Positions 6,341-45,560 of a stretch of DNA of 64,000 nucleotides are shown here, one piece after another. The stretch covers positions 62,001 to 126,000 of the forward strand of contig BAAIJX010000007.1 of the NCBI GenBank assembly GCA_054600435.1, read 5' to 3'. The DNA is from Neophaeotheca triangularis. Its lineage: Eukaryota. The notes below the pieces were generated by a model. The model made no database searches, had not been told where the DNA came from, and worked only from the letters and a program-made list of their open reading frames with translations. Position 1 is the first letter of the stretch. Each line of letters opens with the position of its first letter. Both the position numbers and the translations under genes were made by a program.

Positions 6341-7488
6341 ACACAATGGCGACTGCGTTGCCGCGGCTCAAGGGACCGGAATACTTTGAGCTGATCGTTT
6401 TATACTAATCCGAATGTTTTCGTAACCAGAGGATAGCCCCGAGACTGTCGCCTGGCTCTACAGAGAGACTCAGCAGAAGCAGACGAATGCCGACGCGTCC
6501 CCCAGCATTATTACCTCTCAAAGAGAAGCTTCTTCTACCGGCATTTCCTCCGTCACTGCGCCTCTCTACAGACGCACCGACCCTAGCAACCGCATTGTCA
6601 GTGATCCAGTCTACGCGACCCACAGATCTGACACCAACGGCCCCCCTTCCCCAACTCGGACGCATAGAGCTGTTTCTGGCTCTGTCGTCGTGGATCTGGC
6701 TAGTCCTTAGCAAACACCGGCCCCCACACATGCACATGCAGCGACATCAACACATGGCTGGATACCCCTACAATCAACCCGCACTCTGCACAATTTTCCC
6801 TTCCATTTTTCCCGCATCCCTACGCGAACATCAGCACGACCACGTTGGCCCAGAGTCATTCGGAGGATCCGTCCGTTTGCGAGAAGCGATTCTAGAAGAG
6901 CAAGCGAGGCCAGATAAGACTCGATACCCTGGACTGTCTCTCTGCAGCTACGGATGGTTGTCTTCGATACTTATGGCTCTCGCAAGAAACTATCGGCACT
7001 ATGCTTGGGAGATTCTTGCACTTGCAAAGGTTGCAATGGCTCCTTATATGTAGCTACGGGTGGAGCTACGGGTGGCTAGACAGTAGTTTATATTGTGTTG
7101 CTAGAAGTGTGCAACCTTTGCTTAGAATGTGTGCAGCTCACATTTGTGGCTGATCCGATGATTCGATTTCTAAGTCAATTCACGGTGATGTGAACAGGCT
7201 TAAGGTTGCGAATGCTCCCAATTCACCTACAAAGTTTTAATAGATGAAGAAGTGATTAGGCCGCTTAGCCTCTAGGTGGCCCTCGCCCTTGGACTTTTGA
7301 CGAAATTTGGGCCGTGGGCTAGCGTTGCCTTAAGTTGAACCAATGGTAGTAGGTCGATAAGCAGGTGGTTAGATTAGATAGGATCATCTAGCGCCCGCCA
7401 AGTTTTCGAGCTCTTGAAGATTTACCAAAAGAGGAAGTCTGAGTGTAGACTTTCTCTCCAACAACATAACTTAGGGCCAACCTTCATA

Positions 7489-9789
7489 ATGAAACGCAAG
7501 ATCGGAGCCTTGGAGAAGGTGGATGCAGACCTGCCTAATCTGCAGCACAAGATTCGACGAGACCCTCCGTCCTATCGCGAAGACTTCATCAATCAGTACA
7601 GCCAATATGCATCGATCCACGAGCTGTTCCTGCAATCGCCCACCACCACCGATGATACTGGATTGATACGGCTACGCGATCTCATCGACTTCATCTCGCA
7701 TGTCGCGGAATGCTATCCCGAGATCACTTCGACCTTTCCTCAAGACTTGATCAGACTGCTTGAACTACACCACGCTACTCTTGACCCAGAACTACGAGAC
7801 AAGATAGTAGGGAGTCTGGTACTGTTACGCAAAAAGGGCACAATCGACAGCAACACCCTGCTATCCACATTATGGCCTCTTCTCGTCTCCACGCCCTCCA
7901 AAGCTCTCCGCGAGCTTCTCTTCCAAAAGATACTTTCCGACTTGCGCAACAGCAATAGCAAGACCACAAACCACAAGCTCAACCGCAATATTCAGACCAC
8001 ATGTTACAACCTCATAGCCTCCGACCCGGCTTCTCCGAAAGGTCTCTGGGCCATCAAGCTCACCCGTGAGCTGTGGAGACGACAAATATGGAACGATGCC
8101 AAAGCCGTTAGTATAATGGAGCTCGCGGCTCTGTCTCAAGACGCCAAAGTCGTCACGGGGGGTGTGCGCTTCTTTCTTGGTGGTGACCAAGAGCGTGAGG
8201 AGGCAGCTGCGGAAGAGGATACGGATGAAGAGGCTGTTGACATGGGCAAGCTGAAGCATCAGCAGGGTATCAACAAAAAGAGCGGAAAACGCCAGAAAGA
8301 GTTGAAAGCGGCGGCCGCAAAGCAGAAGCGTAAGAACAAGAAGAAGAATGCACCGCATCCGCTGAATTTCAGTGCTCTGCACTTGCTGCATGATCCTCAA
8401 GGTTTTGCTGAGAAGCTGTTCGGACAACATTTACAACCCGCGCAACCTAAAGTGCGTTTGAACCTCGAGCAGAAGTTGTTGGTGCTGCAGCTCCTCTCCC
8501 GCCTGATTGGTCTGCACAAGCTTACCTTGATACCGCTCTATTCCTACTTTCTGAAATTCCTCACACCCAAGCAGCCGAGCGTGACGGGCTTCCTCGCTAG
8601 CTTGGCGCAAAGTTCGCATTCTCTCGTACCGCCAGACGTCCTGGAGCCCCTGATCTTGAAGATTGCGAATGAATTCGTTTCCGAGGCCGCTGCGAGTGAA
8701 GTCGCGAGCGCTGGGTTGAATGCTATCAGAGAAGTGTGTGCTCGTCAGCCGCTCGCGATGAACGAAACGCTGTTGCAAGATTTGGTCCTGTACCGGAAGA
8801 GCAAGGACAAAGGAGTGCAAATGGCTGCGAGGGGGTTGATGTCTTTGTATAGGGAAGTTGGCGCGGATATGTTGAGCAAGAGGGATAGGGGGCGAGATGC
8901 GGCTTTGGGGTTGAGAACGGGCGAGAGGCAGGCTGCGAGGTTCGGTGCTGTGGAGGAGGGTGGTATTGAGGGATTGGATCTGCTGGAGAAGTGGAAGGAG
9001 GAGCAAGGAGCTGACAGTGAGGAAGACGAGGCCGAAGGCTGGAACAACTGGGATGCAGAGGAGGATGACTCGGATGACAGTGGTGGTTGGATCAACGTGG
9101 AGAGCGACGGCGAGGATATCGACATCTCGGACTCCGAAGACGAGCGAGAAAAGGCCAAGGACAAGGCAAAGAAAGCCAAACTCGACAGCGAAACGCCCAA
9201 ACCGAAAGAAGATGGTGAGCCTCCTGCAAACGAGGCCTCCGAAGCTGCCTCTCGCGCCACCGCGTCCCTCGAGCCCGAGGCCGCCCTCAAGCGCGAAGAA
9301 CAACGCATCTCCAAACTCGCCACCACACGCATCCTCACCCCTGCCGACCTGGCCAAGCTCAACGAACTCCGCAACTCGACCGCCATAACCTCCAACCTCG
9401 CCTCCAACAAACGCCGCAAAACCCCGACCTCGCAAAACGCGATCGCAGCCCGCCACTCTGACGACCCGCTCACAGCGGCCGAAATCGAAGGCCTCGCGTC
9501 CCTGTCCTCCAACAAAGCCACAAAGGAGGAACGTATCGCGGCCATCAAGAGTGGCAAGGAAGAGGACAAGAACGATCACCGCTCGACGACGGCCCGGCGC
9601 AAGGAGAAGAAGGAGGCTGAGGGTAAGAGCACGACGAACAAGGAGAAGGCGCGGAAGAAGAATTTCATGATGACGCTGGGTAAGGCAAAGAGGAAGGGGA
9701 AAAGGAGCTTAGTCGAGCATCAGAAGGTCTTAAAGGCGCATGTGAGCCGGGGGAAGAGAGGCGGTAAGAGAGGCAATGCTGGAAATTAG
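7489..9789 (+). CDS. SDA1: Sda1 60S ribosome biogenesis protein
   Basis: ATG at 7489 gives MKRKIGALEKVDADLPNLQHKIRRDP; NFSALHLLHDPQGFAEKLF, GLNAIRE, RILTPADL and STTNKEKARKKNFMM are characteristic Sda1 motifs. Confidence 0.95.
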   Translation: MKRKIGALEKVDADLPNLQHKIRRDPPSYREDFINQYSQYASIHELFLQSPTTTDDTGLIRLRDLIDFISHVAECYPEITSTFPQDLIRLLELHHATLDPELRDKIVGSLVLLRKKGTIDSNTLLSTLWPLLVSTPSKALRELLFQKILSDLRNSNSKTTNHKLNRNIQTTCYNLIASDPASPKGLWAIKLTRELWRRQIWNDAKAVSIMELAALSQDAKVVTGGVRFFLGGDQEREEAAAEEDTDEEAVDMGKLKHQQGINKKSGKRQKELKAAAAKQKRKNKKKNAPHPLNFSALHLLHDPQGFAEKLFGQHLQPAQPKVRLNLEQKLLVLQLLSRLIGLHKLTLIPLYSYFLKFLTPKQPSVTGFLASLAQSSHSLVPPDVLEPLILKIANEFVSEAAASEVASAGLNAIREVCARQPLAMNETLLQDLVLYRKSKDKGVQMAARGLMSLYREVGADMLSKRDRGRDAALGLRTGERQAARFGAVEEGGIEGLDLLEKWKEEQGADSEEDEAEGWNNWDAEEDDSDDSGGWINVESDGEDIDISDSEDEREKAKDKAKKAKLDSETPKPKEDGEPPANEASEAASRATASLEPEAALKREEQRISKLATTRILTPADLAKLNELRNSTAITSNLASNKRRKTPTSQNAIAARHSDDPLTAAEIEGLASLSSNKATKEERIAAIKSGKEEDKNDHRSTTARRKEKKEAEGKSTTNKEKARKKNFMMTLGKAKRKGKRSLVEHQKVLKAHVSRGKRGGKRGNAGN

Positions 9790-9814
9790 GGTGGATGAAA
9801 TGTAAGGTTCTAAT

Positions 9815-10151
9815 GTCGGTTTTGAGCGAAACCCGACGCAGTATAGGCATACACTGTGCTATATGCATACTCAACTATTGCAGGAACACATCGAGCAGAT
9901 AAAGAAGTAACTCAATTTGTAAGAAGAAGTCAGTTAGCGCCTTATTAACGAAAAATTGAATTGAATGTCATCATTTTATATGTCTAGGTAGAAAAGGAAT
10001 AGCAATAGTTCCGTACATGCCGTAATCTAACAAGATTTTGTTTAGGACATATTCAATGTTGAATTTTGACACCTATATGTGCGTGCGCGAAATTAAGCTT
10101 TGCGCCAAGCCCTACTTTGTAGGGGTAATTGACCAGATTACTGTAGGGGTG
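9815..10151 (+). repeat. Left copy (A) of the direct repeat flanking the island (SDA1-tRNA intergenic region plus first 5 nt of the tRNA)
   Basis: Aligns by eye with 53409-53776 from GTCGGTTTT to GATTACTGTAGGGGTG; 10090-10151 is identical to 53715-53776 (62 bp). Confidence 0.95.
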
Positions 10152-10176
10152 TTCGACAGAGTTGGTCAATTACCAC

Positions 10177-10580
10177 AGCAAATTGTTTTGCATTCAAAAC
10201 ATGTCTTCAAAAGCGCAAACAACCTTTAGGTTTTTTGCGCAAGCTTAGATGAGGGTTAAAATCAGAAATAGCTTATATACTATCTTTTTAAAAGCTTAGA
10301 TTACGCCTCGGTGAAAAACCTATCTACTATTCAACATTCGTTAGATTCTATATAGGAGTTGCTATTTCCTTATCTTCTAGCTATGTTCCGTATATTTCTG
10401 TAGTTATTAAGTATAGATATAGTATAGTGTATACCGATACTACGTCGGGTCTCGCTCAAAACCGATATTAGAACCTTACATTTTATCTACCCTAATTTCT
10501 AGCATTGCCTCTCTTCTACCTCTCTTCCCCCGGCTCTTTATATTATTATAGCAAATTGTTTTGCATTCAAAACATGTCTT
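10177..10580 (+). repeat. 31-bp direct repeat AGCAAATTGTTTTGCATTCAAAACATGTCTT at 10177-10207 and 10550-10580
   Basis: Exact match of both copies; contains hairpin TGTTTTG-CATT-CAAAACA; the second copy supplies the probable ATG (10574) of the helicase gene. Confidence 0.93.
10296..10536 (-). repeat. Inverted, RIP-mutated copy (C) of the SDA1 3' end and downstream region
   Basis: 10405-10536 is the reverse complement of ~9744-9877 (last ~15 SDA1 codons plus 3' flank) with C>T/G>A changes; shorter mirrored fragments (TTAGATTACG, TTGCTATT.CCTT) extend to ~10296. Confidence 0.9.
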
Positions 10581-13500
10581 AAAATGTAGAGACAGCCTAG
10601 GCAGACAGTATGCGACTAAAGGCGCTAAGGCACTCTATAGCCCTAGGGGTTTAAGCACTGTCGCTTAGTAATACCCTTCCCCCCGAGTTATTAGATCCTA
10701 GGCGTTAAAGTAGTGTCGGTAGGTAAGGATCATGTAGCTACTTAGGCGTCGTCGAGTGTTACGTAGCCTTGACATATACCTACTTATAGTAAGTTAGTTG
10801 CTCTAATATAGACACCTATAACAATATAGCTCTAATAAGATAGCTAGAATACGGCGTAAGGATAGGGGAGCTGACCTACCTAGCACTAGTACTAAGCGGA
10901 ATATCGACTAAGTAGACCCTTAAGCAAAAGAAGAAGCTAAGTTTTCAGCATACCTTACTAAATAGAAGAAAGCTAAGCGAGACGACGGCTTTACTAGGAG
11001 GGCTAATCTTACGGAGGAGACTACCGGCTAGAGTGACCAAGAGCGCTTCGAAGCCGCTATACTAACTCTAGAGGATAAGAAGGCGAAGCGCGTAGCTAAG
11101 TTAAAGGAGAAAGGCGAGCTCGTTCTATGCCTACCGGACTACGGGGTTTACGTCCTTAAGAAGGACAGCTCTAGCGAGGGTATACTAGGCATCGCGGGTT
11201 ACCTTAACTGTCCTACGACGGCCGTAGTATGGTAGCGCTTCGTCGACGATCCGGCGGTAGAGGCGATCTTAAAGGGCCTACACGAGGAAAGCTTAGTAAG
11301 TCTACATCCGGTCCTCTAGGCTTTAAGCTCGCACATGGCGTATAACATGGCGCCGGTGTTATTCTTTAGATATTAAATGTAGGTACCTAGTAAAAGATCT
11401 GCTAGTTAGCGGATCTTCGCTATTTTTAGCCACAAGAAAACTGCCGATTAGCGAATCCTTTAATAGTCGTTTTAAAAGGATCTACTAGTCGGCATGTCTT
11501 TACTAGCTCTTCGTACTTCGAAGACTATCCGATAAAATCCCTACGACCGCGTCACATGTAGAGCTAGCGTAGGAGGATGCAACTATATACTGACTAATGC
11601 TATCTGTCGTAGAAGGCGAACGCCTACGGTATAGTGATTAAAGAAAAGGCCGGTAGCTTCGTGGCGCTAACGTTCGTGAAGACAGACTTCTTCGCTAACC
11701 TAAAGTAAGGCCGGTTCTAGGCTTATGACGTCGCTAGTGATACGAGCCCGCTATTAGACAGATACCCTGCTAGCTCGACGTTACGAATACACCTCTACTA
11801 GCTAAGGGCCGCCGTTAAAATGATTAAAGCGGTGCCTATCTCGTTTATAGGCGCGGCGGCAATAAAGGGCAGAAAGTATGTTAAAGGCCTAGACATTAAA
11901 GCGGAGGACCTACACCGTTTCATCGTCTACTTTACGAAGTTCTACATCCGTAAGGTAGTGGAAAAGAGCTACGGTAAGAAGGCGCGGACGGTCGCATTCG
12001 CTAACCTACCTATCTTCTACCTCCTAGGCGAGTAATAGGCTAATACGGATAAGTAAGCCGCGTAAAATCATTACGCATTCGACAATTTGTTTAACTAGAC
12101 TATTCCCTCCGAGCACCTACTACGTTAGTTCGGCGACCGCTATAGCGAAACAGAGGGCGGCGACGGTAAAGGTAATGGCGGTAGCGGCGACGATACCGAC
12201 TTCGAGGAAAGCCCTAGGCTAGGCGGCGCCGCACTACGTTAGAGTTTGCCGCATCTCGAAGGGAAGGACTTGTCTCGATTACTCGGTTTCTTCGCCGACG
12301 GGGTTAATTATCTTTACGGCTCGAGGGAGAGGGGCAACCGTTTCTTTATACCCCCGTTAGAAAGTGTGCGTTTGTAAAGCGGTACGGTAACAGAAACGGA
12401 AAAGGCTCGCGAGGCTTCGAACGCACTTACCTATAGCGAGAGGCTCGCCTTTAACTAGGAGGAGTTTGCTAAACTATAACAGCGCGCTAACACGTGCTCT
12501 ACGGTAGCGCCCGACTAGGAAGACGCCGTGAATACGCTAGGCCTAAAGGTCTAGGAGCTCGATGAAGGAGAAATCGATTTGCTGACGCGACAAAACTTTC
12601 GAGTATCCTACCGCGGGCTATAACTTATACTATAGTAACCGTAGTCGTCCGCGTATATATACCGTATAATTAACGGCCCCCTTAGAGCGTGTATTAACAC
12701 CGACGACATAGGACTCGGTAAGACTATATCGACGCTCGTTACCGTAGTGTAGCGGTCTATAGACGTTCACTCTAGCCTCTAAGGATACTAGAACAAATAC
12801 TAGAGCCTAGTCGAGAGAGTACGGCGCGAGTAGGTAGTCGATTCGTCACAATCCGCAGATAGGGAAGATAAGAGCGACCCGAGCGACGAGAGGCTTATTA
12901 GTATAGTAGGACTAGAAGGCGCCGCTACTAACCTAGGCTATAAGCCGACACATAAGCTAGTACTTATCGTAGTGCCCCCGTCTACACTTAGCGCTTAGAC
13001 ACATTATGCCGCAAGGTACTTTTAAAATCGAGAACAGCGTATAAACATCACTATACGCACGTTCTTCGGCGTTAGCGGCGTAAAAGCTACCTCCCTCGAG
13101 CGGTAGTTGTCCGTCGGCACTACGGCGAGCGAGCTCTAGAGTTATTACGCTAGCCTCGACCCTAGCGACGATACTACAAGTCGAACGTGTATCCTAACGA
13201 CTTTTCGAAGCTTCTCGAGCCGCTGTCTAGATGCTTAAAGATCGGGGTTGTTAGACGGAGACGTTATAATGGAAGATTCGCCTAACGAAGTCGTAGAGGA
13301 AGTCCTTAACAGCGACGAGGAAGGACAAGAGTATGACGACTTGCTCGAGACGTAAGCCTACGAGCCCGACGAGGACGACGCCGACGCCCTTTAGAAGGTG
13401 CAATTCTCTACGCTTAGAATAGCTGCGGACACGTTTTCCTTACTAGTCGTTAACGAGGCTTATTAGGTCAAGAACCGCGTAAGCCTATAGACCGCCGCTT

Positions 13501-15868
13501 TATACAAGCTAGAATGTCGCGCCACGATACTCTATACCGCTACGCCGTACATTAACTCCGTGTATAATATGTACGGACTACTACGGTTTATGTAGAAGGG
13601 TATCGAAGGTCGCTTTAGCGGCTATTCCGCCGAGAGGCCTAACCGCGCCGCTTACGTCGAGCTCCTTAACAGCCTAACGAACAAGTACCGTCGTAGTATG
13701 TTTATAGTCCCGCCGGAGCACCTAGACACCTATCTTATAGCTCTCGATCCCGAGAATTTCAAGTCGCTACTAGGCGCCGGCGTTAGCGCGGTCGACATAG
13801 ACGTGAGCCACGACATAGTACGCTTACCCATAATGCTCACTTGTCTCCGCCGCGTAATAGGTAACAAGTTATAGGTAGCCGGCCGTAGCATTAGACTAGG
13901 CGCGGACATCCCGCCCTTCGAGGTTATCGTTATAGAGCTCCGCTAGGGCGACGCGGAATCGTCGTTATACGGGGCGGCGTACGAGGCGTGCTTTAGGGGA
14001 TCTAGTAGCGGGCTAAAGCGATCGTACGAGGAAGAGGGTCGACGTGCTATAGGCAGGCGCCGTAGGCTATAGCACGCCGCATTTAACCCGGCTTCCGATT
14101 AAATGTACATACGAAACATCGAAATAGGACCCGACACGATTTAGAAGATTACGAAGTAAGGACTCGACAGGTTCTTACTCTACTATAGCTAGACTAAAGG
14201 CAACCTCCACTATCATTTACTAGAGTCACGTATTACAATAGCGCTTTATGTTATAGGCGACTCTTATAAGATGCAAGCCGTGTACGCCGAACTTCTCTAA
14301 GTAGTTATTAGGGAAGACCGCAAAATGCTCCTATATGCGGAGTGGCCATTAAACCTCGAGCTACTAGAGTTGTTACTTTACATACTCGAAATCGAACACC
14401 TTTCTATCCGAGCGGGCGTTAAGGCTAGTAAAAGGATAGAGGCAGAAAACGAGTACAATAGTAACCCCGTAGTCAAGGTCCTCGTCTACTCTTCTAGATC
14501 GGCCGTAGAGTCGCTTAATTTGCAAAAGGGCGGCCACTACATTATAGTAGTAGATGTCATCCTAATTATAACGCTTATGCAGATTATTAGGAGGGGGTTC
14601 CGTGTCGGCTAGTCTTACCCGCAGACTATTAAGCTACTTACGGTTAACGAGACCTACGACTAATACCTCTTATATAGATACGTCGCCAACTATAGCGCCT
14701 AGCTAGCTGCTATATCCACTATCGAATTACCTAAGGCTGCCGTTAAAAGAGCTTGCCGTTAAGCCGACGAGCGCGATAGGCGCGGGCACTAAGGGGAACC
14801 GTCGGATTACGCCGAATACCTTAACAAAGCCTTACGGGAAGCGTTCGTAGGAGGCCTCGTATGTTGTATGCTAGGTATACGTTCGAACCGCGCCGACGAT
14901 TAGGGTGACGTGCGTAACGTGCGTAAGAAAAACTTGCTTCTAGAAGAGCGCCTCTTCCGCCTAGTAATAGGCGGGCCGGTAGCCACCGAGCTACTCCGTT
15001 AAATTTAGGAGAACAATTCTACTAAGTCCGTAGAGCTAGGCGACACGGTGCCTACGTTCTAGGCTAGCGTTTTCTCCGCCGCCATAGTTATACGTAGGGC
15101 TAATAGAGAGTCGTTTTTAGAAGGCAGCTACGTTCGCGCCTTAATTACTACGGCCCGGGACATAGCGGCGACCCGTGAATTCGCCCTAAACGCCGTTAGC
15201 GCGACCGACTACCTCGTTACTACTAAAGGCTAGGTAGAGACACCGTCGCCTTATCTGTACACGGTAATTAACCGCCTAGCGGGCGCGGAACAGTCCGGTT
15301 TAGCGTCTAGCTTAGATAGTCTAAATGTAGGCGGACAAGACGAACTATAATACGAAGCCTCGCGTACGGAGGATAGGCTACGGGTAGAGGCTATATGCTA
15401 GAGCGCGCTAGGTAGGAATTCCCCCTACTAACGCCGCTAGACCGCGCTAACTATATATAGACGGTAACGAAGCGTTAGTAGACAGCCTAACGAGGCAGGA
15501 GGATGTTCATAGTACGTTTCCGTTAACGTCGTGAAGGTGGATATGTGTTTTAATGCTGATAGAAAGTAGTTCCTTAAAGCGTAGACGAGTTGACCGACGA
15601 TTAAAGTCGAGCCTACTAGGAATGCCTTAGCGTGGTGAAAAACTTTTATTCGAGGTAGGGTATAGTAGCATTTACTAGGCAGGAATTTAAGGGAGAGGTC
15701 GACGCTAGCAAACGGCGCGACACGGTCGAAGTCGGCATGGCATTCTTATAGGTCGAGAAGGAGATCCGCGAAGGCAAGGCACATATTCTAGACTAGGCCA
15801 AGTATTCTAGGCAAGAGAAAGCATTGTGGGAGAAATGCTAGCGAGCAATTGAAAGTCCGAAAGAGTGA
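10574..15868 (+). pseudogene. SNF2/SWI2-family (SF2) helicase-ATPase, RIP-inactivated
   Basis: Motif I CINTDDIGLGKT (~12690-12725), Ia LIVVPPSTL (~12960-12990), II LVVNEAY*VKN (=DEAHQVKN after RIP reversion, ~13443-13475), III TATP (~13535), HELICc with ESLNLQ and motif VI QIIRRGFRVG* (=QIIGRGFRVGQ, ~14580-14612); probable introns ~11379-11611 and ~15512-15561. Confidence 0.9.
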
Positions 15869-19496: not shown

Positions 19497-20560
19497 TTAT
19501 GCGCCCGGTATCATGTCCGAGTCTTCCGTCTCCCTAAGTAAGGTTTCATCGTCTTGAAATTCGGCCCTCTTCCTTTTCGTTTTCCGCGCAACTCGCTTCT
19601 CTCTAAATCTGCTAGAGGCCCCGGCAAGACGTGATTGCCCTAAGGATGTTCTAGGTTCCGTCGCTTCTATAGAAGGTCGAGGGAAAATGCTATTCAGATC
19701 ATCCCCGTGACATCCCGCTAGTAGGCCTATTAATACCCGGCGAATGATGTCGTAGTAGAGATCCTCTAGGGTTTCTATAGTAAGGGACTTAAGCCGACGA
19801 GCAGCCGAACTAGCGGGATTCTCTTTGTCGTCGACGTGCGGGCCGTCTAGTAGAGGCACTAGATTTCGAAATTTTCCTCGACTCGAGCCCCCTAAAAGCT
19901 AGTATAACTCGGATGTTGTAGTTAGAACGAAGAGCTTTTTGGTAGCGTATAAGACTATCGAATCGGAGTTCGTTCGGAAGACGGGGACATTGCCGTAGGG
20001 GGCGAATTGTATACCGAAAAGCGGTGTACTAGCCGAAGGAGGGTTCATTATAGCGCTACTTTTAAGATATCTACTACGCTAAATGTCTTGCTAAAACGCC
20101 GTTCTCGAAGCGTGCGACCACTTGTACTTAGCGAAGTAGATAGGTGTATACTCTAGCCTTTATCGATGTTAGTAAGACCGCCTCGTAGAGCTTCATATTA
20201 TAGGAACTTACCCCGGAGGACAAGGGCGCCGGGCTTCTAGTACCCTAGAATTAACACCCTACTTACGCTAGGTAAAGCGCGAAGGTTAGTGGAAGAAGAA
20301 GCCGTCCCTATAGTGTGTAGCTAGCTTATTTAGAGCTATGACAAGCAATTCATTCTACGGTAGCGTACGCCTAATGTAGCCGACATCGATGTTATCTACC
20401 CGAAGTTATAGGTGTTTAGTCCTTATATCTCTCTAAAAGAACTTTAGGCTTGCTACGATGTTACGTAGTAAGTAAGTGGACTAATTAACGTCTACAGTGT
20501 CCGTTCTAGGGCTAGAGGTTAACCCCGACATATCGTCGATATAGCAATACTCCTATGATT
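19497..20560 (-). pseudogene. Hypothetical protein, decayed; C-terminal ~120 codons still open
   Basis: ORF 19497-19859 with basic NLS-like KRVARKTKRKR; frame continues upstream through RIP-type stops. No family recognised. Confidence 0.4.
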
Positions 20561-22285
20561 AGAGCGAGGTAGGAGGAAGACCTTATAGTGTTTAAAAGCA
20601 CGACACGTTCAAGACACTATCTGTGAAAGTACCGACACCGTGTCACAATGTGTTTCGAATGGCGGCGCGACTCCTCTATAGCACGAAACAAGACAAGGAC
20701 TAACTAGTTTACTCACTCGCATAATACATAAAAGCATCGTCCTTAGACTGTCGAGTCCGACTCGAGGCAAAGACCCTCTCCCCTTTGCCGCTTTACTAAT
20801 AGACGACTTAAACGTAGTTATTAGTTTTATGTCTATGTTATAGCACTAACAACTAACATTCGGAGCCGTGTACGACTAGCGCTCGAAATGGCAAAGCGCA
20901 TGCGAAAGGTTTTAGTTAGCATTAGGCGGCCCTCCGGCAATCTATTAACATTATGTCCTCTTATTCTCTTAGCTCCTAGGGCAACTAGACCTCTTCGACC
21001 TTATAAGGCTCGTTATACTAGAACTTCGAAGCGCCGGAACTCCCTAGTCGACCTCTTAACTATAGAGCTAAGTACTTAACACCGTCTCCGACATCCGTCA
21101 TTAGGCTCTACGAATCGAGTTAAGAACGCAAGCCGACTTCGATTTACCGCTTTATCTTAGCGAGAAACGTGTATAGCTAGAGGCGGAGATTCACCGCGCT
21201 AGAGTTCTACTCTATTAAGGCGGGAGCTACACTTTACAAGAGTAGAGGGAGATAAGCGAATGGCTAGTAAAGCGTCCGCTAGGCATCGCCTAGCCGATAG
21301 TTAGCGAAGAAACCTCGAGTCCTACTAGAAGGCCTTCGAACGAGGGGAGCGGCAATTAAGGAACTCCCCCGGAGTAAGAGGCTACATCCTCGCGCCTCTT
21401 ATTCTTACGACTGCCCTTAAACGCGATATAATAGTTAGGGCGGATAGCTAGGTAGTAGGAGAACGATTGTCTGTAGAACATCTAAGGGAAGTTAATTTAA
21501 GTAGTGTACCTGAAGGGGACTTGTGTATAAGAACACGTAGAACTAGTTTGCGAGATAGGTCGATTCGTGGAGGCTTATAGGCTAAACCGGGTAGGAGGGT
21601 AGTATCGGCTAAATTAGTTAGGTAGCGGAAGGGTAACCGTCGAGGTGCTTTTACAGCAAGTTCTTAGTAGGCAATATACGTGGTTAGTTAAAGGAATTTA
21701 TGCACGTGCCTTCCTACTAGGTCATGTGCAGATCACGTGATTCTTCTACTCTTGCCTTATGGCTTTATAAATGCCTTAGGCATGAAATTCCCGCCGGACG
21801 GATTCATCTTCTAACGTACAGCTCGGTAGATAGCTCTATCCTATTTAACACTAGATCTACGCCTATAGAACTATAGCCTAGGAATTTCCGCATTACCGGC
21901 TGTAAGAATCCAAGTAAAAAGACCTTACGGTAGGAAAACGCTACATGATATACTTCCCGTGTCTATCTAGTAGGACGAGTATAACAGGACTCTAGTATCT
22001 ACTATGTCTTTAGTCCTAAGTCACGAATCACTTATAAACTTCCCTTGTCCTATTCCGCAAATATCTAGCTTATAAGTTAAGGCCGTTAGGTAGGAGACAA
22101 GTACAAAGGGTTTATTAGTCTTCGTACGATTAGCGCAGTTCTTTCCGTAAAGTTACATTAACAAAATCGAGACCTCCGCCCCTTCTAACCTCCCTAGGCC
22201 CTCGCCCTCGTACTAAGTGAACTGTAGTCGAGATTATACACCCCTCCTAAATCATACTCCGCCCGCCCTTAGACCTACGCTTGCC

Positions 22286-28124: not shown

Positions 28125-30090
28125 ATGCTCAAGCTACGGTCGATATCCGTAAGTAACGCGCCTACGATCTTATTAGACAGGAACATAGCTAACGTCGTCG
28201 ATAAGCTGCCCGTATTTCGACATATTCCGCGAGTCTTCGCGAGTATTATAGTAAACGTCTGCTTTCTAGCCTTAAGCCTATAGGTTGCCTAGGATGGGTT
28301 GTTTAGAGCTTCGTTATAAGCTTTAGCGTCCCTAGAAGAATGGCGATACCTAGAGTCGCTTTATTTAGTCTATATCGTAACGGCATGTTTATAGCTAGTC
28401 GTAGCCATAATGTTACTATAGTAGCGCACGTAACATTGTTAGAGAATATATCGGTTAGTCTACAGCCTAGGATTGTGGGATGACTGTTATGCTAACCATT
28501 TATTCTAAGCGGGCAAAGTCCTCTACCTCTAGCGACGCTTTTACGCTATGCTTTCGCGATCTTCGATAGCTTTGCGCCAGACTATCTCACATTTAGGAAC
28601 TGCGAGCGTAGCTAAGGCGTCGCGATTCGCACTTAATCGGTACGGACTGCCGCTTAAGTAGCGTAAGTGTGCCATGAAACAGCAGCCGCGGCGGTAGAGT
28701 CTTATAGGAGTAATGCTTAGTACCTAAATACACTAAGTAAGGCGCGTATACCGGCTCGGATTCCTAATGGTATGTCGTATTCCTAATGCCACGTAGACAA
28801 CTCGACATTCGGACGAGACCGACCTAATCTACGGCGCGCTCGTCGGTATAGTAGTGGCGATGTTTAGTATAGGCGCGTAGGCCTAAACGCTCCTAACGAG
28901 TAGCTCTTCGCATTCGCTAGCAGTTCGTAAGCACATGTTAGGTCTCGCATACCGGAGTTAACTAATAGTAATTTTGGTGTGCTAGCATTACTATAGGCGT
29001 CTAAATCTAAGTAGAAACATAGAGCGAAAACCCTAAGATCCGAGCTAGTCGATAAGAGAAGCCGTGGCGAGAAAGAAAGGGTAGAGCGAGATAGGGTAAT
29101 TCTTCATTTACGTCGGGAGCTCGATTAGCTTAAAGACGACTATAATAACTAGGAGCTTCGGTTCTCGAGGACTTAGGCGGCTCCGAATAGACGTCTTCGT
29201 AAGGATTTAGAAAGGGCTCGAAGGGACTACGATTACGAAGTCCGAGAGCGAACAGAGCTCGCCTAGAGCCTCTCTATACACTAAAAGAGCATAAGATCGA
29301 TAATGTAGCTTTCTAAACAGGAGTCAGCTCGGATTTCAAAGGTACTTGACTAAAGCGACAAAAATCAATGTTAAGGAGGCTTCTAGACAGGTAGGCTATC
29401 TTGCGAGCCTCTCGTTAGATACCGCGCTTACAGGCATATTCGACGTTTACTATTCGAGCCCGCCTAGGATTACTTGGAAATAGGCACCTAACTAGTATCG
29501 GGTATCGATTCGTGAACACCTCTTAAGGTCCTCGTAGAAGTAATGTATCGCGCGTCAACCTATGCCGTACGGCCGATCCCGGCTCGTAATAAGCTAGCGG
29601 TTACAATATCCGGTGCTTCGCGAATTCACGAACTAGTATAGTATCGGCCCGCCAAGGATAACAAGGTCTATAGGAGCAACATTGCGCGAGCGAACCTATA
29701 CTAGTACCGGTTCGCAAAGAGCCGCCTTGCCTTACGAATCAAGAAGCTCTTATGAAAAGAAGGGATCGCAAGCTAACCGGTACCGGTACCGGTTCGCGAG
29801 TAGCCAGCGTTTCCTTTAAGCTCTAATAGAAGCGACGTATCGTAAACCGACCTATACTAGTATAGAATCCCGAGTAACTAGCGTTTCTAGAGAACTCGAG
29901 CGACGGCGCCAACGAGTAGTTCGCAGTCACTAAGGACAGACGTAGGCCGTATAGGTTTACTAGTCTTCGGGCCTAGTCGACTGTTTAACGCGCCTCGTAG
30001 AACGGCCACTACGCGGACTCGTGCAATAGACTTCATTTCTACCGGGGCATGTTCTATTATGTACGTAAGGCGAGATTAAAACAATTAATT
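28125..30090 (+). pseudogene. Membrane-anchored coiled-coil protein, RIP-inactivated
   Basis: Two N-terminal hydrophobic segments, an intron near 28453, then heptad-like ILHLRRELD*LKDDY…LRKDLERARRDYDYEVRER. Confidence 0.4.
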
Positions 30091-31479
30091 TAAAAGAAGA
30101 GCTAACTACTAGCTATCCTAATTAAGAACAGATAGATGTGTGCTCTTAGCATACATGCCTTAGGCATAAGTCGCCTCCTACGTTTTAGGAGCATCCTACG
30201 TATAGACCCCCTATCGTCACGACCTAAATGACTAGGTAGGTAGGTAGTGTTAGGGGAGGGTCTAGAGTAGACTTGCAATTGTGAACCGAAAACCCACATT
30301 CGCATACTATAGCTCGCATAACAGAGCAACGGCTACACGCTTTACATTAGCTATAGCTAGGTTCTAGTCTCACATCGTCACATGGCGAGCGGCGAAACAT
30401 GCTTCTATGACAACGCGGCATAAATATCTATCGAATGGAATATACCCGGTCTTTATTACAACCTAACCGATACTCTTCGCAATACTCACTTCTACTCGCT
30501 ACCACTAAATAAACCTACGCGTGGCGAGTAAAATTCATCTCTAACGATAGGGCCTTGCTATATTTGCCGCAGATGCCTACCGCGACCTAATGGCTCTTAA
30601 TAGCGGCGGCGACGCTCGCTAATTTGTTCGTTTTCGGCCCGTTAATCGTTTTGCTATCTAAGGCCTTTGTCGTCTACATAGTAGCGCCGATCTTGAGCTA
30701 ACACGAAGCTATCCTCGTTTTACACTACATACGCATGTCGAGCTTTGGCTTTAGTGTAGCTATTACGGTGTAGTTGCTTGTTAAGTAGGGCCTTGTCCTA
30801 CGTCGTAGATATTAACACCTATAGACGGATGGTTATAAGGACGACGGCATGGCTACGTTCAGATTTCAGAAATGAAGCACTTTGTGACCCGTTCGAAGCG
30901 ATCGAGTCGTACTATCGCACGATCGACTTGCCGACGATACCCGCCCCTAACCGCGATACTTTTACTAAGCTCACGAACTATCCTATCTAACCTCGAAGAT
31001 CCTCCTCTACGCTACTATCGATACTGTCACGAAGCTCACGAACCATTATGTCTAACTTCTAAGATCCTCCTCGCTACTATCGGCTTTAGCGAATAGTCGG
31101 TATCGAACTAATAGTCTAACACGGACCGAAACAAGCATCGACGTAATACGGTCGTAAAGATCGGTCGACCGTCGGTTAATAGAGCAGTTATGGGTAGGAA
31201 CGAGGACCCTAGGGCCAAATCTGCTATTTAGCACTTCGATCTTTTACGTGCTATCTATTAGAACACGTGATCACGAAGGCATCCGGATTGGTGTCTAGTG
31301 CTAGGTAGAAGGTCAATTTGTCACGCGTACTTCGGCATTATAGAAGTAGGTATTATCATATTATGCGACTAAAATATCATATATGGCCTTTAGTAGCAAA
31401 ACGGCATACGCGCTATCGCTTCTCCCCTCTACATAGGTGCCCGATTAAGGCTTACTGTTCCTACCGGCCTAATAATACC

Positions 31480-32539: not shown

Positions 32540-35500
32540 CTCTTTAACAATGTACAGCGTTTCGACATAGGGACAACGCCTCTTTAGCGGACTAGACAGC
32601 TAGCGCGTCGTTGCTTTAAGTGTCATCCTTACTTAAGGGGTCCGCTACCTTCTTCGAGCTATCGCGCCTACGCGTTACTTTTCTATAACTGTTAGTAGTG
32701 ATTAATCATTAGTGGAGACGTGTGAGGTAACTAACCTCCGAAATCCTAAGCCGCTTAGTGAACTTTATAGAGCGTTGTCCGATACTCACGTCTTAGGAAA
32801 GGCTTACTAATAGTACTACTCTATAGATTTACTACGCTTATAGGCCCGTCACGATCGCTATATAGAAGATCGAAAAGGTTAGTGTAGATAGAATCCGTGC
32901 TAATAATGTACCGTAATGGATTAATCGTCTTATCTACGATAAAGGGTAAGCCTTTAGTGACGGCCTTAACGTTAACAGTATTAGTCCTAGAGAACTAAAG
33001 GGGCTCGGCAGATTCCTGCCTAAGAGACAAAGGTTTTCGGAAAAAGGATTTTGGTCGATCTTTGCATGCGATAGGCTGCCTCGGTAGTCTATCGTGAATA
33101 GCGGTGTAGCCCGAAGGAAGGAAGAGGTAGGAATCTGCGAGCTACAACGACTAGGCCATTTTAGCTTTATATGTGCTACTAAGCAGTACGAAGCGGGAGT
33201 CGGGCAAAGGAACCGTCTAGTAGGCCTTACGCATATAAATCGGATAAGTGTAGCGCCCCCTACTAGCTATAGACAAATCCATGAAGCGGAGGACAACGTA
33301 TTCGGTATCGGCGAGATAGGAAGAGTATACTTAGACCGGTAAAGCTCCATTTGCGCAAAATTTGATGCGCGCTTCGTGGCTCTAGCTATACTTCACGACA
33401 ACGTGATTACTATAGCCGTAGCCTCTATCTAGCGGGTAGCAGATTAGCGGCAATTCTAGCGTGTAAAACCGAAAGTTTAGGTCGTAGTACACCTAGGGTA
33501 GGGACTTCGAGTAGAATGTTCGGCCGATGTCCTACTTTAATTAGTTAAAGTCGGGCTAGCGGAGTTCATCTAGTCGTGTGAAGCTAGACTTAATAGCGAT
33601 CTCTATGTCGGTACTACTAGCTATAGTAGCTATAGCGATGCTGTCCACTTTAGCGAATGCCGCCCTAGCGTGCGACTAGACGTACTATAGCATACGCTAC
33701 ATCTACTCTCTACTAGGGCTAAACGTATGACTGTCGAAAGACGCCTAGTCTAGACGTCCCGTTTTGGATTCGGACCACGCTTCGTTAATGTCGTCGCGGC
33801 TAAAGCACACTAAAAGGCCGTCTAGGAACTAAATTATAAGAATGTGCTATTAACGGCCTAGGGCGAAAGGCGAACGTAAGCTAGTTTCCATATTTCCGCC
33901 GCGCTAGAGATACTTAACTTTAACACGAAGAGCCTCGTCACATCTAGGTATCGCGAGTAAAAAGTCACACTAAAGAGGCTAAAGAGGATTCTGCATAACG
34001 CGGTAGCCTAAGGTAGAGAGGTCGTCCTAGAGCTTTAGCATGTATTTAATTAATGTGCCTAGCCTTACGTTACCTTCCGGCCAGATCGCTACTATCTTCT
34101 ACTTCGAAGGGTAGAAGCCCTATAAGACGACCTTCGTCGTCGGGTTAACATACGGCGAGTTAGCGGTAGCCTCTAATAAGCGGTTCGCGGCTGTAGCGAC
34201 GTCTTTCTATTTAACTATAAAGGCCTATGCCCACGTTAGGATGTTTAAGATAAGTGGCTAGATTCCGCTCGACTAATCTGTGCTAGCGTCGAAGACGTGC
34301 TTTAGCACTATAGCGATATGACTACGAACGTTCTCGAAGCCGATGAAGTACACCTTAGCCTATTCTTTCTACTAGCTATATCCCGAAACGAAGGCGAAGT
34401 CTTCCTCTTTTAGCCCGCTAGGTAATAGAGAAAGATACTTGACGTTATATAGTAGGAATCTAACAGCGGAATTTTTCATTTTGGACTTTTTATTAGCCCA
34501 TTCGAGCTTCTTACCGTCGGAGAAGTCTTCGAGGCCTCGATCGGCTTCCGTGTTAGGGTTATATACGAGGACGAAGTCGACTAGGGCGGATTCGTAAGCT
34601 ATCGTAGTGGTTAGTTTGCCGCTCGGCGGAGTAAGTAGAATCGCCGTACGAATAGCGGATAAGGTTAATTCCGGCCTACTAGAGCATCCATACAATCTCG
34701 TCTTTAGCTAGATACCCTAAGCAGGTGTAGTGGTAAGGGGGCTTCATTATGTATCGTATCCCCCTCCCTAGTGTATCGAAGTCTAGCTTAGTGTTATGAA
34801 TTCGATGTGCTATTGTGACTACTAATGTAAGCCTGTCTTGGGTAGAAGAGTAGTCGGACATCATTCTGCTTTACAAGTATACCTAGTAAATAATGTAGTA
34901 GGAAATGCTCGCTTAATTATATAGCTAGCCGAAGAGGTAATATAAGCACGGTAGGGCTTGCCGAGCCTATCGTATAGGCGCTACCTACATCGGAGCGGCG
35001 TAGGAGGAATAGAAGGCGACTTAGGAGGCGGAGTGTAGGTATAAGCAAGTAAGTACCTAAGTCCTCTAAATCTACGATACCGGTACTACTCTTACTAACC
35101 CGGACAAAAGAGATCGTAATACTCGCCCTATAGCGCGGTAGATTAGCTAGCTAATGCAAGGCTTTAGAGTCTCTCGTGGAGTACTGCCTCGAGAGGGCGA
35201 CTAGGCTCGCTTTTTATGTGCCTCGCGTCAGCCCACGCTATATATCTAGTCGACGATTCTAGAAACACCTAGTTGATTCGCCTAAACTTTGTTAAAGCCT
35301 CGTGGACGTTCTATACAAGGACCGGTCCCTTAAGCGAGCCTTGTAGATTAGTAAGTAGCTAGGTATAAAGGGTCAATTCACGCCTACTAGCTACTTGCCC
35401 GGCCCGCTTTAAGGTCGTAGGCCTCTCCTTACAAGCAAGTATATCGCCTATAGTTGTAAGGAGGAGTTTTCCGCCTAGCTATAGTAGGATTAGTGTCTTA

Positions 35501-36600: not shown

Positions 36601-38819
36601 TAGGTGCCTATATATACATCATCTAAGATGCTCCTACGTGTGTAACTAACTAGGTAATGAGTGCAGGTAGTAATAGAGGTATACTACCTAGAAGGTACCT
36701 AGATACCTAAACCGACGTACTTATTAGAATTAGGTACCGACGTTACCGAGGCATACCTTATGTAGAGCCCCCGTCACTACCCGCGTGTCGTAACACGCTA
36801 AACACCTCATGCGTGAATACTCGGTCACGTGCTTCACGACTCGGCTAGGGCCGATTGTTTTTTGGCTTTAAGAAAACTGCTGACTAGCAAATCTTGTCAG
36901 CAATTTTAAAAGGATCTGCTAGTCGGCATGTCTTTAGAGTGAGCGCGTACGGTAGAATGGAAGGCTCTATAGGACCTCTATAGCCACTCATGTAATAAAG
37001 AATTAGCCGTAACCCGTGTTGCCGTGGTAGTAGCTACCTATAGTCGTCTACCGTAGAAGATTAGCTATTACCGCTCGATGTAGTATAGTGTATGTACTAG
37101 TTAATCGTTGTCCTTATAGACAGACGTCGCCTAGTAGTAAGATATGGCTTTTCGAAGGACCTTAAAGTACGGAACTACGTACCGACGGCTATAACCGAGA
37201 CTACTACTACCTCCGTGGTACGGCTAGAGAAAGGGAAGTAAAAAGGAATCGCGCTACGTTCTATTAAAACCCCCTAGGCAGCTTACAACCTTGCATAATA
37301 ATAACCGTAGACCCGCCGACCCCTTTAAACGCAACCCGCCTTATCTATAGAGGAAATACACTATATTGCCCGAACCCGACTATTGCAGCCTATAGGCTAG
37401 ATATCTCGAACCCCTACACCCCTACCCGGGCCTACTCTCACATGTTTCCACGGCGCTAAATCACCCGCAAGTACTAAACAAATAGCCTAACTGTAACGAG
37501 CCACACTAATTTGATTATGGCAATAATCGTTACTATCTAGTTATAAGTAAACCCTAGCAATACTACTACAATCGTTATGACAAGGAAGGTCGTAAGCTCC
37601 TCGTTAATAGCTAGGGAAGCCGTAGAATAGAAGAAGACCAAAAAGTGAAGAATAGATTACCCGATAAGCTTCCCGAACAGCACGGTCAAAGAACTAGTTT
37701 TGATGAGTTTTCTAATAGTTAGGATATGCTTTAAGGCGAAAAGCTTGATCGACATAGCGTTTATAGCATGCTAAAAGAGGTAGGCGGCCTAGGTAGCAAA
37801 GTCCTACAGTTTAAGGTCGAATACGTAGATGTAACCGCAGCCTAAGCCGGTAATGGCTACGATAGAGAGGATAGCGAAGGACAATATCTTGAAGGGGTTG
37901 ATTAGAAGATGCTAGGACAAAGTTTGCTGATTTAATCGGTTTAATTAGGTCGGAGGCCTTAAGGGTTCCCTAGTACGAGGCGGTTTTGCGTAGGTAGGAA
38001 GTTTGTAAGTTAGAAGTAAGCTGTCGACAGGCTATGTTAAACGGAGTTAAGTGCTTAGGATTAATGGTATAAGGCAATTGTGTGTAGGAAGATCTTGATT
38101 ATAGCGGGCTTAAGTTTATAGGCGTCCGGTAACATCCTATATAGCTATAAATCATGTACATAAGGAGGGCCCGGGACAAGGTCGCAATACACTAGAACCG
38201 TTTCGCTAAGCCGAGCCAGACTTCCCCTTAGATTCTTGTCTAGAACAGGAACAGTGCATTTTCGTAGGCGAGACACTTAAGAAAGACACAAGGCTAAATC
38301 TAGCCGCCTAGAGAGTTTCCGTGCTAGCTCTACACGAGGAACCCTCCCCGACTTCGAGACGATCTTAGGCTGCTATGGTTTAAGGAAGACTTTTACGTCG
38401 ATACATGTTCTATAAGTGCGGTATACTCTCTACTTTATTGTAAGTTAGTAAGTGACAAGCCATTATACGAACCTATCCTATCACTCCTAGCTAGTCCCCC
38501 TAATTAAGAGCTAGCTATAGTAAGATTATTCTACTTATAATAGTTACATCTTGTAAACGGCTTAGTGTGCAAGAAGCGGTAGACTGAGCACCATCCGTCA
38601 TTTTGCTTACCTTCGTAGGAAGGCTTCCTAGCTATTAACCGAGAGAAGTCTCACTACCTATTAGCCCTAGTTTTAAGCCTGCCGCTTCCTAGGGGCTAGT
38701 ACTCGCGTTCTTACTACGCTACTAAGAGGTATTGTCAGAACATGAAGTTCACTTAATTACGATCCCTCCCTAATCGTTTAACATTCGGACGCTCGTAACA
38801 CGTCGACCCTCGTCCGAAA

Positions 38820-42404: not shown

Positions 42405-44960
42405 TTTAGGCGGCACAAGTGATTTGGATTTGCTATCTTGTAAACTTTATCTATTAAATCATCGACAGATTAACTCCCCCTAGCTAGAGCGCTATTGTAA
42501 GATCCTATAGCCTCGTCGATTTAGCGACTTTATAATAATAAGCTTACGACGACGGCCCGTAGCGGCCTTATCGAAAGAAGCAGATCTTAAACGCCAAGAA
42601 ATATTGACCTAGCGGCTGCTAAAAGGTATTACGAAAAACCTCATGTAGAGTAGGACTATAGAAGAAGCATGCCGAATAAGACATGAGTCGGGGTAGAAAG
42701 TTAATTGAAAACAGCTCGTAACGCTCGATACTCTATAAATGTGGACCGAAGAGCCGATCGTTACACGTGCTAAAGTGGCCGGTAACGCTACGAGGGCTAC
42801 TGCTTTTTGCTCTTCTAATCGCGGCGGCTAGATAAACTAAGTGCTATCCGCACCGTTACCTATGTCTATGTCATTCTCCCCCTTTATAGAGAAAGGCTCC
42901 TCCTCGTCATCCTACTACTACTCCTCCGAGGGTTAGTTCTTCGAGGTTTTACGCTTACGCTTTAATGCGTTTAAGCTATAGCCGTCTCCTATACTACTAG
43001 TCGTGTTAGCAATAGTAACGGGCTACATGTCTAGTAGCGACACCTCGACTTGTTTAGCGACTTCGACGACTACCTCGGCGGACTAAGTCTTGATTTTAAG
43101 CTTTATGCCACACTTAAACTAAACGCCCTATTCATCTAGTATAGGGGCCGTCTAGACCCATTTGTCGACGATAGACATTACTGTAATAGTTTAGCACGAA
43201 GCAACTTATTAGGGTTAAAAGGGTTTACTTACCGAGAAAGAAGAGTCTAACGATAGAGGTTAGGTATACGTATAGCGGGTTAGGTGGTTAGGTAGTAGTA
43301 GTGAGAGGTATCGGCGTAGGTTATGTTAGACTGACCGTAATTTGTCGTAAAGAGACGTGCGGATCGGGGTATTAAGTATCTTAGGGTATTGTATGCGATT
43401 CTTAACAACGCCGTGTTCTATAGCGCACATTAGAGGCGTATAAAGGTGAAGCGAAACACTTACCAAATTAGCTAGGACAAGAGAAATAAGTCGCACCTCG
43501 GATAGGTTGCCTATTAGTAGCTGTTTAGGCTAGCCATGTACGGTGTTGTCTCGTTAATCTATTTACTAAGCATTCCTTCCATGTGTAGTTACTAGGACAC
43601 TTGACTTCTTCCTATAACCTATAGGTAGCGTGCTACGTCGCTTTTTCGTAAGATTTGGCTAGCTAGGTACGAAGCTGCTAGTACGCTTACCTACCTTCTA
43701 GGTGTTCAAATTCGCGCCGGCGGGGTGTTAAGATCTGCCTAGATCTTGTCGAAGAGTTTTAAACCGACGACCTTAGGAGGTTATTCATAATTAAAGGTAG
43801 CGTTGCCGCTCGAAACACCTTACGTGCCCAATATATAGCTGTATTATGTAATTCTAGTAGAACGCTTTAGCCTTTGCCCGTATACCCGTATCCTTCCTTA
43901 GCCCTTCTCCTATCTCTACCGACGGACATGTCAAAATATGGCTCTAATCCCTAAATATCTATTACTGAAATTCTTCTACTCCGACGAAGAGAGTCGCGGC
44001 GTTTTCTGACAGGTTTAGCTTACACAAATGGCTGACTCCGTGTTTTAACATGATTAAGTCTAGCTTCCTATCCCCTTCGGTGTTGTAGAGGGTAGTATAG
44101 TCGAACTTGTTTCCGACATCTAGCTAGCCGTTTAACGCTTAGAGAAAGGTGAAGCAGTATTCGCGGTAGACTATAGTCGCGTGTAGCCTATAAGCTATCG
44201 GATAAGGCTTAGTAACGGTAGTGTCGTATAAGATACACGGAAAAGTCGTCGTTAGCGATAGGGTACGCTGTGCACTAAAGTAGACAGGCGCCTTTTCATC
44301 GGTCTAATCCGGCGATGCCTCTATCTCTTTCTCGGCACGGAACGATATACGAATGTCTAGTCCATTTTCTGCTAATAGCTTGATAATGAAGAAGTCCTTT
44401 ACGCTAGTACTAAGTACTATCGAGGATAGGCTGTTCGATACAATGTAGCCTTAGGCCTTATAGTTTTAGGTCTAAGTCATAGTCCCTACGAAGATGCCTC
44501 CTACTTTACTACCTCCGCCGTTACTACCGGTTGCCGCCCCTTAGTGCTATAGGTTAGCAACGCTATCTTGTATCTTTAGGGTAGGGTTACATTACTATCG
44601 TCTTCTGCGAGCTTCTCTATAGTAATGAAGGACGTTAAGTTCTAGTTCGACAGGATTTGAATAGGCTAGAAGAAGACTAGCTAGCGTAGCTACGTAGTAT
44701 CGTAGGTAAGTAAGTCATGGTGTTGCGTTCGTTGCGTTGTCCTGTAAACGCTTTAGGTAATGGCAACATCGCTAGACATCTCTTTTACCGACGCTCGCCT
44801 ACTTTTAAGGGGCGACTAGAATAACATACGCCGTGTTAAAACGAGCCTACGTTTCCTATATTATGCTAACCTCTCACTAGAATTCAGCCCTCAAACAAAC
44901 TACCTCTTTCTAACGAACTACGGCGAACTAAGCCTTAAGGAATCACGTATCCCCTCTTAA

Positions 44961-45560
44961 ATGACGGGCACCTTACCGGCTTCGGGCAAGGGGGACTACG
45001 GCGGTCGGCAAAGTTTAATCTTCTTCTCCCTACCGAGCGAACTCCGTAATAAAGTCTACACCTATAGCCTCGTCGCACTAGAACCGATCACAATTACTAG
45101 CAACAACGCAAGAATGTTTAAGGAGCTAGCAATACTAGTCGTCTATAAGCAGATTAGGGAAGAAGTATCGTATATCTTCTAGGCCAACAATCGCTTTAGG
45201 ATCCTAATCGACCATGTAATCGACGACAGCATTATGGCCTAGCTTAAAGTCGTCTCACGCTATCACTAGCACTTAATCGAGCAGCTAGTACTAGTATACG
45301 TGACCACTTAATCCGGTATCGACTTCGTAAAAAGCGTCACCTATAGGATGTCGGAACCGCGGGCGAGCTTATAACATAACGCTACGGAGACTCTATAGGT
45401 GATATACTAGGCCGGCTTCCTAATAAGGAAGTTAAGTTTTAAGCCCTTCTACCCTTTCGAGAGCTTAGAGAGGCAAGACAAGGCTATAGGGCGGTTCTAG
45501 CGATAGTTGTCGGCTATAGTAGAACAGAAGTAGGATATACTAGGGAGGAGATAATTAACG
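44961..45560 (+). pseudogene. F-box-like (2EXR/DUF7730-type) protein, RIP-inactivated
   Basis: FFSLPSELRNKVYTYSLV…ELAILVVYKQIREEVSYIF*ANNRF matches the LP.ELR..IY…P.LL..C.QIR.E….F…N.F pattern of this expanded Dothideomycete family. Confidence 0.75.

Follow-up and report, generated by a model that had tools for sequence, protein, structure and literature searches.

The element and its surroundings

The window, meaning the whole stretch of 64,000 nucleotides that was analysed, belongs to a fungal genome of 25.4 Mb. It contains an island of RIP-mutated DNA that ends directly before an intact tRNA-Arg gene and is flanked by the genes CPSF73, TAF4, SDA1, and PP2C. The features are as follows.

7414-9789 (+): SDA1, a host housekeeping gene in the left flank (Pfam SDA1_HEAT, SDA1_dom, and SDA1_C)
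9815-10146 (+): relic right end of an older element copy, 81% overall to 53409-53776
10124-10135 (+): left arm of the dyad, formed by the sub-terminal repeat at the right end of the relic; 11 bp separate it from the direct repeat GGGTG
10147-10151 (+): direct repeat GGGTG, 5 bp equal to tRNA nucleotides 1-5, at the centre of the dyad
10152-53771 (+): RIP-mutated element of 43.6 kb, TpA-rich and CpA/TpG-poor
10163-10174 (-): right arm of the dyad, formed by the sub-terminal repeat at the left end of the element; again 11 bp separate it from GGGTG
10169-10211 (+): 43-bp repeat R of left-end sequence, with a second, RIP-altered copy at 10542-10584
10233-10536 (-): inverted block between the R copies, read as captured flank, with the SDA1 3' end and another relic allele; inner limit approximate
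10858-15374 (+): broken SNF2-type helicase gene, cargo and first gene of the element (PF00176, E 5.8e-10)
19566-20399 (-): shared gene X, broken, of no family
20964-21278 (+): shared gene Y, broken, of no family
32737-34599 (-): shared gene N2, broken, a distant paralogue of T
51591-53504 (+): terminal gene T, broken, reading towards the end, its stop about 265 bp from the direct repeat
53749-53760 (+): right-end sub-terminal repeat, partner of 10163-10174
53772-53875 (+): intact tRNA-Arg gene with an intron (Rfam RF00005, 43.9 bits), its first 5 nt being the second direct repeat

The composite RIP index is 0.7-2.1 per kb over 10001-54000 and negative in 19 of the 20 flank bins, and in 200-bp bins the signal fades at both island edges. 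The SNF2 gene resembles a Vermiconidia protein (37% over about 1250 aa). Its relatives formed only two clusters among the 8000 candidates scored, and the one that is named comes from Vermiconidia, a dothideomycete black fungus. Going by this single match, the host may belong to the same class. Relatives of the SNF2 gene and of T were absent from viral contigs and phages, and exact look-ups also returned none.

The anticodon of the tRNA-Arg gene is UCG by reading and by comparison with intron-less relatives; ARAGORN places the intron elsewhere and gives tct. A second copy of this tRNA gene was not found in the genome at E<=1.

Several smaller features were observed in and around the island. An 80-bp repeat (11423-11502 and 36859-36936) has one copy in a gap of the SNF2 gene that is probably an intron. 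A broken cargo gene at 44775-45638 (+) has a weak match to DUF7730 (E 0.02), and an imperfect 265-bp fold-back lies at 54259-54524, between the tRNA and the PP2C gene. Small non-coding repeats at 21722-21889, 30052-30177, and 36934-37221 have unmutated copies on other contigs; two of the three hold a near-palindrome around CCTTAGG, with no Rfam match. Island matches on contigs C59, C10, and C64 were considered as tRNAs or element copies and rejected, being small unmutated dispersed repeats. C64:1-3000 is a further RIP-mutated stretch. The tRNA-dense contig C114 is probably mitochondrial, and C10:11189-11612 was flagged beside it.

Structure of the dyad

A preliminary description of this DNA had reported a perfect 12-bp inverted repeat across the left junction of the island, and most of its observations are borne out. 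The sequence GGTAATTGACCA is found at 10124-10135 (+) and 10163-10174 (-), and it recurs, as described, before the tRNA at 53749-53760 (+). Inner arms CTGT (10141-10144) and ACAG (10156-10159) do stand on either side of AGGGGTGTTCG, and the junction was correctly set at 10151/10152, the match to the right-hand repeat ending at 10151. The inner pair has no counterpart at the homologous junction on contig C24. A short direct repeat is present as proposed; it is not AGGGGTG, the actual repeat and centre of symmetry being the 5-bp GGGTG, which is found at both ends of the 43.6-kb island 10152-53771. Around this centre the layout is exactly symmetric, with 12+11+5+11+12 bp.

The junction is not an assembly error, because 10122-10206 is covered by a read-derived contig that has 0 differences, at a depth of 148. 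The contig comes from the probable source run, and this run and the genome are not independent. The dyad is the only perfect 12-bp inverted repeat in the window with a spacer of at most 50 bp. Dinucleotide shuffles of the window contained at least one such repeat in 17 of 100 cases; thus, the weight of the dyad comes from its position and conservation and not from its length.

The relic and the inverted block in the left flank

The segment 9815-10151 is repeated at 53409-53776 and, in part, inverted at 10407-10536. Since T reaches within about 265 bp of the right end, this repeated "spacer" includes the last codons of T. On the left, 9815-9910 forms the unbroken final 32 codons of T, and its translation matches the C-terminus of the intact protein from contig C38; the left arm is therefore the right end of an older copy and not host target DNA, as had first been supposed. 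The origin assigned to the right arm, an element end, holds. Both arms are thus element ends: the left one ends a 330-bp relic of an older copy and the right one starts the island.

The final 62 bp of the two right ends (10090-10151 and 53715-53776) are identical, and the remainder is about 10% different with indels in addition (p about 0.001-0.015). The identical tips may reflect constraint or, alternatively, recent conversion. An extra GGGTG at 9789-9793 overlaps the SDA1 stop codon, 21 bp upstream of the relic start; it may be a coincidence or else the left-hand repeat from the oldest insertion.

The inverted copy at 10407-10536 is 88% identical to 9744-9874. At two variants (9830 and 9845) the block agrees with the right end against the left relic, and 10327-10369 matches a contig of sequencing run X2 that continues into the tRNA. 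This fold-back is a separate captured piece and does not account for the arm. The most plausible reading is capture of flank through template switching, at a time when an ancestor of the element was at the same tRNA in another haplotype.

Assembled contigs of other sequencing runs were also compared. In X2 and X6, a contig with SDA1 shares 9815-9875 and then leaves the window sequence, resembling the inverted copy from there on. These runs retain at least the first 60 bp of the relic; at 9845 their base is that of the left relic, and at 9830 no difference appears. An X2 contig passes from relic-type sequence through the arm region directly into the tRNA; its spacer also measures 11 bp and differs in sequence. 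There is almost no cover of 10152-13000 in X2, and no single contig bridges SDA1 to the tRNA; missing cover in X2 and X6 proves nothing, and run X3 scarcely covered the stretch. Over 9875-10151 of X2, two upstream sequences, each at about half depth (67 and 61 versus 127), seem to converge on tRNA nucleotide 1. Judging by contig overlap lengths, from which the convergence is deduced, the relic appears to be hypervariable in this run.

Related elements in the same genome

Through paralogues of N2, two relatives were located on contigs C38 and C24, so that all three element loci come from one genome. C24:226109-295368 consists of two RIP-mutated copies in tandem, about 33 and 36 kb long and about 92% alike. 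They have 5 bp in common where they overlap, and the pair stops at the 3' end of a tRNA-Arg(CCU) gene. Its direct repeat is ACGAC, and no fold-back exists at the junction between the copies. This region also carries nested insertions, which we take to be gypsy-like and copia-like from their motifs. Pfam gave no match on the plus strand of the C24 left end.

The copy at C38:113878-149537 is unmutated, 35.7 kb long, and splits a tRNA-Val(CAC) gene. When the element is removed in silico, ARAGORN calls a tRNA-Val(CAC), which is uncalled at the high junction as it stands. The element has a different, intact tRNA-Val(CAC) of its own at 119167-119239. Its ends bear 18-bp terminal repeats (2 mismatches by reading) and a 3-4 bp direct repeat GGT(C), with no TAATTG.

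T, N2, X, and Y are common to the three loci at 24-47% identity; no tblastx match to the SNF2 gene was found in the C24 and C38 copies. T and X each have exactly four copies in the genome, every one inside these elements. T adjoins one end at all three loci and is the sole shared gene at an end in every copy. The position of insertion in the tRNA gene varies: nucleotides 1-5 in the window, about nucleotides 9-12 on C38, and the 3' end on C24.

Conservation of the end motif

Comparison of the arms at homologous termini, which the preliminary description had proposed, supports conservation in part. Read from outside to inside, the core CAATTA begins at position 16 or 17 in six of the seven ends of the window and C24 copies, and in the seventh it has one mismatch; these seven ends are not mutually independent and really represent four kinds of end. 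In the C24 tandem pair, the repeat ACGAC at the junction is preceded by TAATTG at a distance of 15 bp and followed by CAATTA at 16 bp; in the window, both distances from GGGTG are 15 bp. The chance of both 6-mers at the C24 junction is about 4e-7, a rough, post-hoc estimate because the 6-mer was picked after C24 was seen. The motif is limited to two of the three loci, since the C38 ends lack TAATTG and have other terminal repeats; the tRNA target holds at all three.

Within each element the two arms agree over about 12 bp, and the spacer to the direct repeat varies, which is what a fixed-distance binding site would give. The earlier view of the arms as enzyme sites or the tip of a TIR stands in so far as they are sub-terminal inverted repeats at element ends; no recombinase was found, and the motif is missing from C38.

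In the genome as a whole, the pattern TAATTG-N33-38-CAATTA occurs at three places, two of which are the window and C24 junctions, and a control pattern gave five, so there is no enrichment. A dyad on C26 is situated away from any tRNA or RIP island. A scan for the arm with at most 1 mismatch gave 75 matches versus 36 for the control; five were exact, three of them in the window. No other match lies within 1 kb of a listed tRNA, and the five other sites fetched are outside RIP islands and do not match the junctions.

The arm was also considered as a tRNA promoter motif and rejected. Of 70 metagenome tRNA-Arg loci found, 2 were too short, and the arm (at up to 2 mismatches) is absent upstream of all the other 68; it is likewise absent near all 30 tRNA loci fetched from the 53 listed in the same genome. 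SDA1 synteny was seen at 0 of the 70 metagenome loci. Dyad patterns had 0 matches in metagenome and viral contigs, where homologous ends from outside this genome were not found.

Gene T and the search for a mobilising enzyme

No DUF3435 (PF11917) or Phage_integrase (PF00589) was found in the genome by loose searches, one of them without a positive control. In the C38 copy, none of 35 long ORFs reached the Pfam cut-off (two had weak matches below it), none of 137 short ORFs matched, and no recombinase or transposase family appeared in either set; the scan left out one 178-aa antisense ORF and cut ORFs that cross the borders of 10-kb stretches. The window island was Pfam-scanned in part, and RIP damage limits the captain test on this copy. 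DUF3723, FRE, PLP, and NLR were absent from the C38 ORFs and from the scanned segments of the window. Two recombinase-like motifs on the minus strand, at 50481-52760 (largely antisense to T) and 43401-45401, were rejected, as neither had matches.

T itself has no match in Pfam, PADLOC, PDB, or phage searches, and two structure predictions were unusable (pLDDT 32). Residues G23 and E27 and the motifs LLFDVK and LAD...K are invariant in all four T copies; the latter two we take to be two PD-(D/E)xK motifs. Atlas clusters for T include SmaI, PvuII, and ThaI at 0.83-0.84, below the reliable range of the Atlas, and a PHROG endonuclease matches at E 0.31. N2 is a distant paralogue of T (pairwise E 5e-4), and an Atlas search with X gave no usable match. 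The restriction-nuclease-like motifs of T may be regarded as a lead only.

The mobilising enzyme is most likely encoded by the element, with T as the best candidate, at a probability somewhat short of even; T is put forward only in this capacity because the Atlas leads are weak, the folds unusable, and the PDB search empty. A tyrosine recombinase, lost or acting in trans, is a possible but rather doubtful substitute, and an unrecognised DDE enzyme is a still less probable one.

Comparison with known elements

The family has traits in common with Starships such as Hephaestus, Voyager, and Tangerine, which, in the available parts of the sources, are elements of tens of kb with cargo, short direct repeats, set-back inverted repeats, and Pol III targets, and are RIP-prone. 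The elements here measure 43.6, about 33, about 36, and 35.7 kb and contain cargo, direct repeats GGGTG, ACGAC, and GGT(C), and near-end inverted repeats. Starships, however, have a DUF3435 captain as the first gene, whereas the first gene of the window element is SNF2 and no captain was found. Moreover, the conserved end gene T is unrelated to the captain and reads outwards. The Starship targets in the portions consulted are 5S rDNA and AT-rich sites, in contrast to the tRNA genes here.

Dada elements, as the available part of PMC3706591 describes them, also target tRNA genes, have sub-terminal inverted repeats at a fixed distance, and form tandem insertions. All three elements of this work are at tRNA genes, with duplications of 5, 5, and 3-4 bp. 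Dada differs, in the same source, by a DDE transposase and duplications of 6-7 bp; here no such transposase was detected by Pfam, the duplications are 3-5 bp, and the elements extend to 33-44 kb with cargo.

Bacterial integrative and Tn7-like elements sit at tRNA genes, and Tn7 duplicates 5 bp and employs TnsA, a restriction-like nuclease. The likeness lies in insertion at tRNA ends with a working gene left or restored and in tandem accumulation. The present family differs from them: it has a fungal host and introns in T, and neither an integrase nor TnsB or TnsC was detected in it. In the literature searched, no giant captain-less fungal element at tRNA genes was found, and the supplementary Starship insertion tables could hold tRNA sites. 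The family resembles Starships and Dada in its working; it is not shown to be either, and as tested it falls under neither definition.

Origin of the dyad

The dyad is probably the head-to-tail junction (right end, 5-bp repeat, left end) of two members of a family of DNA elements of 33-44 kb that carry cargo and insert into tRNA genes. This degree of confidence applies to the reading of the junction and the end motif and excludes the enzyme. The geometry, the repeats, the three loci, the shared genes, the tRNA targets, the tandem arrangement, and the relic are direct observations.

The following history is proposed. Insertion of an older copy at the 5' end of the tRNA-Arg gene would have come first, followed by a deletion that spared only the rightmost 330 bp of this copy. 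A second copy would then have entered the same GGGTG, the tRNA remaining intact, so that its left arm came to face the right arm of the relic. RIP would subsequently have inactivated the second copy; its trigger, two copies in one nucleus, is clear for C24 and assumed for the window. Insertion at the end of the gene leaves the tRNA gene whole; therefore, a further element can enter at the same site, which would produce a dyad of one right end and one left end. The arms are most likely binding sites that place the integrating enzyme at a distance of 11 bp from the cut. By binding both sub-terminal repeats, it may pair the ends and join them at a 3-5 bp site in the tRNA gene.

The alternative that survives best, although it must be considered doubtful, is that these are derelict or non-autonomous Starships without a captain, in which the dyad is attP-like, the tyrosine recombinase acts in trans or has disappeared, and T is no more than conserved cargo. 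The size, the short direct repeat, and the set-back 10-12 bp inverted repeats recall Tangerine, as the accessible portion of its report presents it (10.1101/2025.11.25.690456). Starships are also described, in the parts of the sources at hand, as moving through a circle whose junction joins both ends (10.64898/2026.09.21.753150) and as targeting Pol III 5S genes (PMC11162782, section 23); further background is contained in sections of PMC10104507, PMC9156397, and PMC13004909. Against this stand the loose first looks at the genome, which revealed no DUF3435 or Phage_integrase, the same outcome among the 35 and 137 ORFs of C38, and the identity of the conserved end gene, which is T and reads outwards.

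Dada-like DDE transposons enlarged with cargo, their arms being sub-terminal repeats of the Dada type, are an improbable source. Insertion into tRNA and snRNA genes, repeats at a fixed distance, tandem insertions, and fungal relatives are all described in the part of PMC3706591 available and would suit this origin; the 6-7 bp Dada duplications given there are longer than the 3-5 bp seen here, the C38 copy gave no match to a transposase family, and the three insertion positions (nucleotides 1-5, about nucleotides 9-12, and the 3' end) are unlike one another.

A reading of the dyad as nothing more than the end of a fold-back that locally duplicated host spacer DNA is very unlikely. In its favour, the inversion of 9744-9874 at 10407-10536 has nearly the same centre (10140 versus 10149), the inverted middle matches sequence upstream of the tRNA in X2, and shuffling yields such repeats at the rate given above. 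Against it, the supposed spacer belongs to the element, and the motif is present again at the C24 junction, which has no fold-back. The arm and the inverted block also lie about 60 bp of non-matching sequence apart, and a part of the arm recurs together with left-end sequence at 10542. An earlier reading, with three copies of a host spacer and the dyad as the fold-back tip, was dropped after the C24 and C38 relatives were found, and the counter-case named in the preliminary description, a fold-back remnant absent from the ends of related copies, is largely refuted by C24.

Within the preferred reading of a head-to-tail junction, we tentatively consider an undescribed class: giant fungal elements with tRNA genes as their homing sites, in which the gene that is hit is kept or replaced, C38 having its own tRNA-Val(CAC). 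A restriction-like nuclease encoded at one end would move them, in place of a tyrosine recombinase or a DDE transposase, and the dyad would be the paired binding site of this nuclease. Such a class is possible, though unlikely.

Implications

Starship finders start from the captain gene, according to the available sections of PMC11162782, and cargo elements without a captain would therefore be missed. The present finding marks the ends of a family of giant elements that target tRNA genes. A single genome of 25 Mb has three related elements of 33-44 kb, each at a tRNA gene, and this suggests a second route by which gene blocks move in fungi. The C38 copy, unmutated and with exact ends, makes the mechanism directly testable. 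If it were true, tRNA-specific integration by a nuclease alone would be a new chemistry of eukaryotic transposition and a possible tool for delivery to safe sites.
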